DNA from: Escherichia coli
Lineage (GTDB): Bacteria > Pseudomonadota > Gammaproteobacteria > Enterobacterales > Enterobacteriaceae
Assembly: GCF_030384885.1 (NCBI RefSeq)
Contig: NZ_CP128613.1
Strand: one strand, 5' to 3'
Length of the DNA: 64,000 bases
The translations under genes were made by a program, and so were the position numbers. This document shows positions 61,713 through 63,759 of the stretch, piece by piece. Positions within the stretch are counted from its first letter, which is position 1, and every line of letters starts with the position of its first letter. Below the pieces are notes generated by a model. That model worked only from the letters and a program-made list of their open reading frames with translations. It was not told the origin of the DNA and made no database searches.

Positions 61713-62270
61713 ATGGTTTTATTAAAGAACAAAAGAAAAAGCAAGAAAGGTTTCTCACTACTCGAACTATTACTTGTTTTGGGCATCATTGCTGCATTAG
61801 TGGTAGCGGCTTTTATCGTTTATCCCAAGGTTCAGGCTTCACAAAGAGCGCAGGCAGAATCCAATAACATTGCCACCATACAGGCAGGTGTTAAAGCATT
61901 ATACACGTCGGCTTCAAGTTTTACTGGCCTGACAAATACTGTGGCTGTTCAGGCAAAAATCTTCCCTGACAATATGTTAAGTGGAACAGGCAATGCAGCT
62001 AAACCCATCAATGCCTTTAAAGGTAATGTGACGCTGGCTGCGGCAGCAACTGGCCCGTCATCAGCGGCTGGCTCTTCTTTCACTATTACATACGATAATG
62101 TGCCAGCAGCGGAATGTGTGAAAATAACCACTGCGGCGGCAGGCAACTTTTATACCGCTAAAGTCGGTTCAAAAGTTGTGAAGGCTTCGGATGGAACACT
62201 TGATGTGGCGGCTACGGCAGCAGCCTGTAATAACGCCACAAGTAATACATTAGTTTTCACGTCTATTTAA
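61713..62270 (+). CDS. pilS: type IVb prepilin (PilS-like major pilin)
   Basis: Leader MVLLKNKRKSKKG then FSLLELLLVLGIIAAL; Gly(-1)/Glu(+5) prepilin peptidase motif; Ala/Thr-rich. Confidence 0.8.
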   Translation: MVLLKNKRKSKKGFSLLELLLVLGIIAALVVAAFIVYPKVQASQRAQAESNNIATIQAGVKALYTSASSFTGLTNTVAVQAKIFPDNMLSGTGNAAKPINAFKGNVTLAAAATGPSSAAGSSFTITYDNVPAAECVKITTAAAGNFYTAKVGSKVVKASDGTLDVAATAAACNNATSNTLVFTSI

Positions 62271-62322
62271 TGAAGAGGGCGTAAGCCCTTTTCTTTCTTA
62301 TTGCTAAAACAGGGAGATAATT

Positions 62323-63759
62323 ATGATAAAGAAAAAAGGATTTACCTTACTGGAAGTCAGTATTGTTTTAGGTATTGGAACGCTTATCGTTTTTATGAAG
62401 TTTCAGGATATGAGAAACGATCAGGAAGCAGTATTGGCTGATAATGTCGGAACACAGATTAAACAGCTTGGTGAAGCAGTTAACCGCTATATCAGTATTC
62501 GCTATGACAAGATTTCCACACTGTCATCATCTAATAATCAAAGCAGCGATCCGGGGCCAAGAACCTGTTCGGCTGCTGGTTGCGAAATCACTTACCAGAC
62601 GTTAATTAATGAAGGTCTGTTGCCTGTAGGCTATACAGGAACTAACGCGCAAAAAGCATCCTACAAGATTGTGTTAAAACGTTCAGGAACAGCGCCGGAT
62701 TACGTCATTAATGGCCTTATAACAACCGCCAGCCCGTGGGAAGAAGGTGGTCGTATTCGTTATGACCTGTTAGGTAAAGCGGTTCAGGCGGCTGGTGTTG
62801 ATGGTGGGATGAGCAGAAACACCAAGATAGCTTCCGGCTATGGTGGTCAGTGGAGTGAGAACTCTAATAGCTACAGCAATATCACGGGTGGTGGATTGCT
62901 GGCTTACCGCGTGGGGTATAACTCTTCAATGTATTCTGTTTATCTGCGTCGTGATGGAACGTTGCCAATGACGGGTGATCTGAATCTTGGTGGGAAGAGC
63001 ATCAAAAACATCAAAGATATTACTGCATCAGGGACAACAACAACCGGGGCACTTAAGACAACGGGTAATGCGTCTGTTGCATCAGATCTGACTGTGGGTG
63101 GAACCTCGACCCTTAATGGTCCTGTAAATATCAACAACAACCTCAAGGTAAAATCCGATACCTATCTGAACACGCTATCAACAACAGGTCTGGCGAAGTT
63201 TGGTAGCCGTATTGCGACGAACGGACTTAATCCAAACGATTTGCCTGCTGGCTGGGCTGGCGGTGTTCGCACCTATGATTTGTATGCGTCGGGGACTGTT
63301 GGTGTTGGAACCGGTAAAACAGTTAAAGCTTACATGAACAATGCGGGTAATATTTATGCGTCAGGTAATCTTACCGCCGGGACGATAAAATCCAACGGAA
63401 CAATTGAATCAACAGGCAGAATCAAAGCAGGTGAATATCTCCACCTGAATGGTCAGGCAACGTTGAATGCGAAATGTACGCCTAATGGTCTGGTGGGGCG
63501 AGATAGTGTGGGGAAAATATTATCATGTGTCAGTGGAAAGTGGTCTGATCTTACACCCGCAGCAGCGTCAGGTATCTATGTTCGTTATTATAATAGCATC
63601 CAGTGGTCATGTCCTGTGCCTAACCGAGCAACCGGAGGCTGTTCATGTTCGACAGGTCTTAAAAGTATCATCATCAATACAGATTCAACTGAAACGTGTT
63701 CAGGAGTTAAAAACACGCACTGTAGAACATCGACAAAATACTTTTATGCTTGTGTTTAA
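62323..63759 (+). CDS. pilV: type IV prepilin-like minor pilin/adhesin (PilV-like)
   Basis: N-terminus [19 protein letters not shown] prepilin motif; large Gly/Thr/Ser-rich C-terminal domain with Cys pairs. Confidence 0.75.

Follow-up and report, generated by a model that had tools for sequence, protein, structure and literature searches.

Orphan pilins of a mobilizable serU island in Escherichia coli: a pilS–pilV module that may act as a mating adhesin assembled in trans

What assembles a pair of pilins whose genes lie beside a relaxase gene and not among pilus assembly genes, and what might such pilins do? The question is raised by the right-hand end of a 64,000-nt stretch of E. coli DNA (NCBI RefSeq assembly GCF_030384885.1, contig NZ_CP128613.1), called here the window. 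A preliminary description of the window, made from the letters alone, had placed two open reading frames (ORFs) at 61713-62270 and 62323-63759, read them as PilS- and PilV-like pilins, and linked them to a relaxase. The coordinates are exact, and the assignments are borne out by the Pfam families PilS and Shufflon_N and by the adjacent MobQ gene at 58888-60369. There is good support for reading pilS and pilV as the two-gene pilin module conserved in a probable integrative mobilizable element, an E. coli serU island derived from ROD21-like (EARL) islands. It is also well supported that PilV is a tip adhesin in which a constant region is joined to one fixed, exchangeable tail at the place where IncI shufflons recombine, and that this island family has no shufflon, no Rci, and no assembly genes. 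As to the role, we favor, with some reserve, a mating adhesin that is assembled in trans; identity and mechanism are taken together in this judgment. The features of the pilin module are as follows.

61713..62270, + strand: pilS, major type IV pilin of the PilS/bundlin family, 185 aa (Pfam PilS 2.2e-29; predicted prepilin cleavage after G13)
62272..62293, + strand: terminator-like hairpin directly 3′ of pilS (terminator scan)
62323..63543, + strand: pilV constant region, aa 1-407, with the prepilin leader, a pilin-like N-terminal domain, and a Gly/Ser/Thr-rich stalk (Shufflon_N)
63523..63543, + strand: constant/variable junction TCATGTGTCAGTGGAAAGTGG (SCVSGKW, aa 401-407), at the position homologous to the IncI sfx site, in single copy
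63544..63759, + strand: pilV variable C-terminal tail, 71 aa with six Cys, plus stop codon; presumed receptor-binding tip
63920..63939, + strand: GC-rich hairpin AAAGGGCC-GTGA-GGCCCTTT followed by a T-rich run, likely the terminator of the pilS-pilV unit (read from the sequence; the terminator scan did not flag it)

PilS also matches the Pfam families Bundlin (5.6e-08) and N_methyl (3.3e-06), and its gene has a strong ribosome-binding site (AAGGAGATAATAATG). The cleavage motif, MVLLKNKRKSKKG|FSLLE, reads KKG|FSLLELLLVLGIIAALVVAAF and is matched by Pfam N_methyl and TIGR02532. Both PilS and PilV have what a prepilin peptidase is expected to recognize, that is, G at −1 and E at +5 with a hydrophobic N-terminal helix after them. 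In its globular domain, PilS conforms to the PilS/bundlin type, including a disulfide pair near the C-terminus. In an alignment of 45 sequences, C135 and C172 are the sole invariant columns; they are also invariant in a second alignment, and searches against the PDB give weak matches to TcpA, BfpA, and the PilS of S. Typhi. The preliminary description had spoken of type IVb prepilin leaders; the cleavage sites are indeed present in both proteins, but the style of the leaders is that of type IVa pilins and pseudopilins. That is, the leaders have 13 residues in PilS and 6 in PilV, with Phe at +1 in both, whereas a type IVb leader has about 15-30 residues and a residue other than Phe at +1, and the IncI PilS leaders have 22-27 residues and A, W, or L at +1. 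Because the leaders are short and followed by Phe, the type IVb label rests on the globular domain. The hairpin at 62272-62293 may set the ratio of pilS to pilV expression.

PilV, 478 aa, matches Shufflon_N over aa 84-405 (E=2.6e-14; 53.9 bits, the curated cut-off being 27.5), and a strong ribosome-binding site can be read upstream of its gene. The protein had been characterized as a Gly/Thr/Ser-rich PilV-like adhesin with C-terminal cysteines, and its composition agrees: G, S, T, and N make up 41% of the residues, and six of the 10 Cys fall within the last 49. An AlphaFold2 model, mediocre as a whole (pLDDT 66, pTM 0.37), has a helix at residues 9-61 and a β-sheet domain with pLDDT 70-83. A Foldseek search of the PDB with this model gave nothing significant, the top entry being the T4 gp34 fibre at E=0.23, and at the sequence level PilV had no match in the PDB. 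The relationship to IncI PilV is real, since the full-length alignment with IncI2 PilV has 27% identity and E=2e-23. The Shufflon_N region ends at an SC-x-SG-x-W joint, and the junction residues, aa 401-407, align with aa 361-367 of IncI-gamma PilVA, ...GAILSCQSGTW(367), in which sfx coincides with the SCQSGTW codons.

The joint also marks where the islands part company. Among the 551 E. coli genomes that match window positions 63400-64000, the match stops exactly at 63543 in 546, and the tail type of the window is rare, being found in 5 of 5426 E. coli genomes. The tails of 114 full-length PilV homologues, clustered at 60% identity, vary from 18 to 166 aa and fall into 29 clusters, of which the window's tail is one by itself; the motif C-x-[SND]-G-x-W is kept. 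In 479 of the 910 pairs with constant regions at least 85% identical, the tails are less than 35% identical. For 32 of the 114 tails, alignment along the whole tail with shufflon segments of three IncI plasmids gives 46-58% identity, with E values down to 3e-27, unlike the constant regions, for which the identity between island and IncI2 PilV is only ~27%. The tail type of ICEKp258.2 has 55-58% identity with an IncI2 segment. To judge from these alignments, the island PilV retains the two-part design of a shufflon adhesin and a part of the tail repertoire, with the variation lying between islands and not inside a cell. A separate observation concerns the PilV homologues P0139, P0180, P0187, and P0239, whose tails have phage tail-collar (PF07484) or PF21882 domains, one of these proteins being annotated as a tail fiber protein. 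Because some tails bear these domains, the adhesin tips of the islands overlap phage receptor-binding modules.

The search for assembly and switching functions used tblastn with IncI PilM, PilN, PilO, PilP, PilQ, PilR, PilT, and PilU, two Rci proteins, HofB and HofC of K-12, and GspD, GspE, GspF, and GspO as queries. No homologue of a pilus or type II secretion assembly protein was detected in the window (64 kb) or in any of nine related island loci. Rci has no match in the window, and in the related islands it gives a weak, generic tyrosine-recombinase similarity to the island integrase. No sfx-like site is found within 5 mismatches anywhere in the 64 kb, the junction sequence is present in a single copy with no inverted copy, and there are no relevant inverted repeats in the window. 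Thus, two statements of the preliminary description stand: that the window has no shufflon repeats or rci, and that the pilin genes adjoin the relaxase gene and not pil assembly genes. In an IncI-type shufflon, alternative C-terminal segments of pilV are bounded by inverted 19-bp sfx repeats. In a control IncI-gamma locus (L006), pilI-pilS precede pilV, sfx (GTGCCAATCCGGTACGTGG) occurs seven times, and rci is present.

The same picture holds across the family. Scanning the genomes of 100,044 species with the conserved PilS N-terminus, taken from a 13-sequence alignment, gave 33 loci. All 13 of the Enterobacterales loci, with PilS 44-91% identical, have the MobQ/TraD/PilV/H-NS/integrase context, and none has assembly genes within 10 kb of pilS. 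PilS is found beside homologues of PilN, PilQ, and PilR only in alphaproteobacterial loci, in which PilS is 24-30% identical; as a positive control, the same queries detected assembly genes with 24-36% identity in the Micavibrio-type loci. A closely related complete pilus operon was considered as the partner of the module and set aside, as no IncI plasmid was among the tblastn hits of PilS in PLSDB at E<=1e-5. Exhaustive searching with HMMER yielded 708 relatives, and the contexts that could be read are islands, short contigs, and unclear metagenome contigs.

The pilin genes lie in an island that starts at 43884 and runs to the end of the window, so that about 20 kb is seen, with 37.2% GC versus 49% for the chromosome. 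The window itself is E. coli chromosome, the cobT-ldtA segment being 100% identical to that of strain 2013C-4282. For comparison there are the annotated island copies L001 and L004, at serU-zinT, and L002 and L003, at Asn-tRNA sites. The left boundary and the backbone genes are as follows.

43794..43883, + strand: tRNA-Ser(CGA) gene serU (ARAGORN), the left boundary and attachment site of the island
43870-43883, + strand: att core, the last 14 nt of serU (CCCTCTCTCCGCCA)
44105..45007, + strand: DUF6387 gene, the first backbone gene (Pfam DUF6387 2.9e-53), at the same position in L002-L004
45214..45432, + strand: AlpA-family small helix-turn-helix protein, a candidate excisionase/recombination directionality factor (RDF) or regulator (Pfam Phage_AlpA 9.5e-19)
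46172..46459, + strand: truncated H-NS with the N-terminal oligomerisation domain alone, H-NST-like (Pfam Histone_HNS_N only)
48894..49298, − strand: full-length H-NS paralogue, Hfp/H-NSB-like (Pfam Histone_HNS_N 5.4e-25 and Histone_HNS 2.8e-17; PMC7074111)
50127..50684, − strand: RepL-like winged-helix protein, counterpart of SEN1990 of ROD21 (Pfam RepL 2.6e-05; RepL annotation in L004; PMC10655114)

In L004, a complete homologous island, the 14-bp serU 3′ end CCCTCTCTCCGCCA recurs ~165 bp past the integrase gene, and this repeat defines the ends of that island; the window junction at 43883 is sequence-identical to the left junction of L004. The order of genes in the window is DUF6387, the AlpA-type gene, truncated H-NS, a NACHT gene, full-length H-NS, DUF4756, and the RepL-like gene, followed by a type I Thoeris pair, DUF4755 with lipoproteins, mobQ, traD, pilS, and pilV. 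The backbone is collinear with that of annotated E. coli islands and is present in many E. coli chromosomes. The pilS-pilV region is matched in 821 of 5426 complete E. coli genomes, in all of them on the chromosome, and the closest complete-genome copies have ~94.7% nucleotide identity over 85% of the length. It is well supported that the family backbone comprises DUF6387, AlpA, H-NST, Hfp, a RepL-like gene, mobQ, a predicted oriT, traD, pilS, pilV, cargo, and integrase. The window has the MobQ gene and the AlpA-type gene at 45214-45432, the integrase end lying outside it, and no type IV secretion system (T4SS) genes are found among the island ORFs in the window.

Two published groups of islands are the nearest relatives. 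The serU island of uropathogenic E. coli CFT073 and 536 is 22.5 kb long and encodes H-NST and Hfp, its hallmarks (Williamson & Free 2005, as summarised in PMC7074111). Integrase and integration site set it apart from its relative ROD21, and its probable origin is IE3 of enteropathogenic E. coli (EPEC) E2348/69 (PMC7074111). The window shares with it the serU insertion, an H-NST-like and a full-length H-NS gene, a length of ~20 kb or more, and low GC, and with annotated serU-zinT islands such as L004 the backbone including mobQ, traD, pilS, and pilV. The window differs in its own cargo, Thoeris and NACHT, in its rare PilV tail, and in a frameshifted traD. The EARL islands described by Pina-Iturbe et al. 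have a core of a type IV pilin, a pilus-related protein, a MobA/MobL relaxase, and TraD, lack a T4SS, and presumably depend on other elements for their mobilisation (PMC6035254). In ROD21, SEN1976-1978 are pilV, a pseudogene, and pilS, with SEN1979 as traD and SEN1980 as mobA; ICEKp258.2 of K. pneumoniae ST258 is also a member of the family, and its pilV is used as a clone marker. The window shares with ROD21, IE3, and ICEKp258.2 the pilin, PilV, MobA/MobL, TraD (frameshifted in the window), the H-NS homologues, the AlpA-type RDF, and the lack of a T4SS, and its GC content is inside the range of 35.7-39.2% reported for EARL islands. However, EARL islands are defined by integration at Asn-tRNA genes and by a specific P4-like integrase, whereas the window island abuts tRNA-Ser(CGA), the four tRNA-Asn genes of the window have no such island, and the integrase of homologous serU copies is only 26-28% identical. 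The setting is that of the serU-island/EARL family (PMC6035254, PMC7074111), and not the IncI-plasmid or PAPI-1 type of setting that had been implied at the outset. As a fresh copy of a published kind of island, the window island stands out by the rarity of its cargo and of its PilV tail. It follows that the pilin pair, as part of a described family without assembly genes or shufflon, is ordinary, save for the question of what assembles the pilins.

Upstream of the pilin genes is the mobilisation module, as follows.

58888..60369, − strand: MobQ-family relaxase (NCBIfam MobQ 2.5e-74; Pfam MobA_MobL 2.6e-54)
60370..61012, no strand assigned: divergent mobQ-traD intergenic region, the predicted location of oriT, from the mobQ and traD arrangement
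61013..61317, + strand: traD, relaxosome accessory protein, frameshifted copy between mobQ and pilS (homologues carry Pfam TraD)

The intergenic region contains several small GC-rich hairpins; a MOBQ-type nick sequence was sought there by eye, and none was convincing. When aligned with L001, L002, and L004, traD has a 1-bp deletion at 61122/61123, leading to a stop codon at 61139-61141. The deletion is either a lesion that impairs mobilisation of the window copy or a homopolymer sequencing error. In the genome-contig scan, pil genes accompany mobQ-traD in 8 of the 9 loci that have enough flank, and among EARL islands the two are together in 52 of 56 (PMC6035254).

The pilin genes also have the marks of genes in use. 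Ratios of nonsynonymous to synonymous change (dN/dS) were calculated by the Nei-Gojobori method for the window genes versus four E. coli island copies, with the results being 0.01-0.10 for pilS, 0.05-0.08 for the pilV constant region, 0.02-0.04 for the pilV tail when compared with the same tail in L002 and L003, and 0.21 for mobQ. PilS is 99.5% identical to the L002 protein, at 95% DNA identity. The pilS and pilV frames are intact in E. coli, Salmonella, Klebsiella, Pectobacterium, Dickeya, Serratia, and others. These ratios indicate that both pilin genes are under strong purifying selection. Moreover, the ROD21 pilin gene SEN1978 is transcribed and regulated, its expression being down in a cpxR mutant and up under H2O2 (PMC7555449, PMC6829429). 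The low dN/dS and the transcribed ROD21 homologue make a decaying relic unlikely. The preliminary description was to be given up if downstream sequence lacked pilus assembly genes and the pilin genes showed no expression; to judge from homologous islands, the assembly genes do appear to be absent downstream, but the transcription of SEN1978 speaks against silence of the genes.

A second group of elements has pilins of the same kind. L005 (NZ_CP115839.1) and ~60 similar PLSDB records are plasmids of 30-45 kb, typed as non-mobilizable, from Klebsiella, Citrobacter, Enterobacter, Raoultella, and Salmonella. These plasmids have three PilS-type pilin genes of the island subfamily, with N-termini identical to that of the window PilS at 19-20 of 25 positions, and also encode a DotA/TraY protein, an ATPase resembling a type IV coupling protein, an LPD7 protein, H-NS, and ParA; genes for a T4SS or for pilus assembly are absent from them. 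They are a second class of non-self-transmissible elements with orphan pilins. In comparison with the IncI1, IncI-gamma, and IncI2 pilS-pilV genes (R64, TP114), the window shares full-length homology of 27-30%, a PilV made of constant region plus tail, and the SC-x-SG-x-W joint, and some other island tails, not that of the window, are the ones 46-58% identical to IncI shufflon segments. The window differs in having no pilI-pilU, prepilin peptidase, rci, or sfx repeats, a single tail, short leaders with Phe at +1, and a location in a chromosomal island.

We suggest a role in transfer because PilV tails are shared with IncI shufflons and because there is a second class of non-self-transmissible elements with orphan pilins. 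The joint inheritance of pil genes and mobQ-traD and the homology of the PilV junction to sfx also speak for a link to conjugation. In the proposed mechanism, a prepilin peptidase would cut PilS and PilV at G|F, and the two would then be polymerised in trans by a type IV pilus or pseudopilus machine, belonging either to a co-resident conjugative helper or to the host chromosome. The resulting thin fibre, tipped by the PilV tail of the island, would bind surface structures of the recipient and stabilise mating pairs, while the MobQ relaxase would hand the excised island to the secretion channel of the helper. The island would in this way bring its own recipient-recognition hardware, much as SGI1 does with TraN, TraG, and TraH in combination with IncC. 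SGI1-type islands encode these as mating-pore replacements for the IncC helper, an analogous case of a non-self-transmissible island with few transfer-apparatus genes. The likeness is one of concept, as SGI1 carries T4SS subunits and the window island would be contributing pilus subunits. The PilV tail would set recipient specificity, as it does in R64 and TP114 in liquid mating (PMC12282955), and diversity of recipient specificity would arise across the island population by replacement of tail cassettes and not by inversion of DNA within a cell.

Several points weigh against this proposal. PilS is only 27-30% identical to IncI PilS, which makes cross-assembly by an IncI machine uncertain. Over the cleavage site and the first 25 residues of mature PilS, 10-11 of 25 match the chromosomal PpdD and Gsp pseudopilins versus 10 of 25 for IncI2 PilS, and only 2 of 25 match IncI-gamma PilS. 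The window's own PilV tail has no match among plasmids, so that the link to shufflon cassettes is limited to other tail types. The PLSDB, HMMER, and genome-contig searches did not identify a partner machine or helper, and in the literature we found no report of processing, assembly, or surface display of these pilins, nor any work on their function. The published transfer of ROD21 did not require the island relaxase but did require pSLT, an F-like plasmid without a type IV pilus, and pilV of ROD21 is a pseudogene. With traD frameshifted, the window copy may be transfer-defective, and the right end of its island falls outside the window.

A further reading takes its lead from the tails. The islands may carry a "frozen shufflon", that is, PilV tails drawn from the IncI shufflon cassette pool, fixed at one per island and diversified across the population, which together with the island's own PilS would re-tip or replace the thin pilus of whatever machine is available, either that of an IncI-type helper or a chromosomal system de-silenced by H-NST, so that the island would choose its recipients. 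We put this forward tentatively, and think it rather unlikely; no description of such tail cassettes was found in the literature.

What else could the module be? The main alternative is that the pilins form a fibre for host adhesion, colonisation, or biofilm, built by the PpdD-Hof type IVa or the Gsp pseudopilus machinery, perhaps de-repressed by H-NST, and unrelated to conjugation. The PpdD-Hof or Gsp machinery is present in nearly all Enterobacterales, and many island hosts (CFT073, 536, S. Enteritidis) have, to our knowledge, no type IVb machine. The short leaders with Phe at +1, and an N-terminal helix that is as PpdD/Gsp-like as that of any plasmid pilin, would suit such machinery, although the globular domain places PilS in the type IVb PilS/bundlin family and we know of no case in which a type IVb pilin is assembled by a Hof or Gsp system. 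The island also encodes both H-NST and Hfp, and H-NST relieves H-NS silencing (PMC7074111). The ROD21 pilin gene shares its regulation with fimbrial and adhesin genes, in the cpxR mutant and under H2O2 as described above; transposon insertions in SEN1976 reportedly lower organ colonisation, according to a citation in PMC6968874; and pilV of ICEKp258.2 has been proposed as a colonisation factor of ST258. A fibre with no part in conjugation, however, does not account for the co-inheritance of the pil module with mobQ-traD, for the tails shared with conjugative shufflon adhesins, or for pilins of the same type on small non-self-transmissible plasmids along with coupling-protein-like and DotA/TraY genes. 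We regard the host fibre as a serious but rather unlikely explanation.

The other two alternatives are much weaker. If the genes were a passive, functionless remnant of the pil operon of an ancestral plasmid or integrative and conjugative element, then the lack of cognate machinery in every island examined would follow, as would the pseudogene state of ROD21 pilV and the frameshift in the window traD. Yet the dN/dS values are far below 1 for both genes and the tail, and below that of the relaxase gene, the frames are intact across many genera, the module is kept in 52 of 56 islands, and the tails are actively diversified with the reading frame preserved; decay is thus very improbable. Least probable, and largely refuted, is that the window cuts through a complete locus of the IncI or PAPI-1 kind, with the assembly genes, prepilin peptidase, rci, and shufflon just past 64000, as the preliminary description had implied. 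PilV does have a Shufflon_N domain, and no complete E. coli genome has a match to the final 240 bp of the window (63764-64000), so that the right end is unseen. In complete homologous islands, however, nothing but cargo genes and a tyrosine integrase separates pilV from the att repeat or chromosome, within 2-4 kb. The cargo 3′ of pilV consists of TIR and shikimate-kinase genes in L002 and L003 and of a VOC gene in L004 and L001. Moreover, pilV is the last gene of pilI-pilV in real IncI loci, with the assembly genes upstream, and what is upstream in the window is traD, mobQ, and defence cargo; the junction sequence is, as noted, without an inverted copy.

The remaining loci of the window include further cargo of the island and a separate region to its left. 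A complete Thoeris type I anti-phage system is present as island cargo, as follows.

53608-55077, + strand: thsA (PADLOC 8.9e-203; Pfam SIR2_2 and STALD, that is, SIR2 plus STALD/SLOG)
55094-55705, + strand: thsB (PADLOC 1.1e-85; Pfam ThsB_TIR)

Between the H-NST-like and Hfp-like genes is a gene for a NACHT-domain NTPase of 616 aa (46832-48682, + strand); PADLOC gives no match, and the gene is possibly a bacterial NLR-type defence gene. To the left of serU, a fragment of a P4-type integrase with the Arm-DNA-binding domain alone (42368-42667, − strand) adjoins the tRNA-Asn gene asnT (42727-42802). Beside it, within 37287-42802, are genes for a HypF-like carbamoyltransferase, a HAD hydrolase, and an MFS transporter, along with a C-terminal fragment resembling AIR synthase at 37287-37535. 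This asnT-side region is apparently the remnant of a different Asn-tRNA island.

Two of the comparison loci show features of their own. L001 (CP088875.1) is a serU-type island copy with an 889-aa DotA/TraY-family cargo gene at 3979-6648. This gene was considered as a pointer to an IncI-type helper and found uninformative, being only ~21-24% identical to any plasmid TraY. The L001 record is labelled a 393-kb plasmid yet holds the chromosomal genes zinT, hchA, and dcm, which suggests that the replicon is misassigned. L003 (NZ_CM177971.1) has two islands of the family, at 5550-27887 and 32045-43729, located at different Asn-tRNA genes, in opposite orientation, and with differing PilV tails. The intervening chromosome segment is inverted relative to the window; therefore, the islands take part in rearrangements among asn tRNA genes.

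The sequence itself is a routine member of a published island family. The puzzle that it brings into view is that a selected pilin and a diversifying tip adhesin are retained without pilus machinery in hundreds of lineages of E. coli, Salmonella, and Klebsiella, ST258 and EPEC E2348/69 among them. The sharing of tail cassettes with IncI shufflons gives a concrete, testable handle on the question of recipient range. If the frozen-shufflon reading holds, these islands would be the first integrative mobilizable elements to retarget mating-pair formation by means of pilus subunits. If it is true that the pilins load onto the machine of a helper or of the host, then the range of recipients would be set by the mobilizable islands themselves, with the defence systems and virulence regulators they carry, and the prediction of transfer networks would change.

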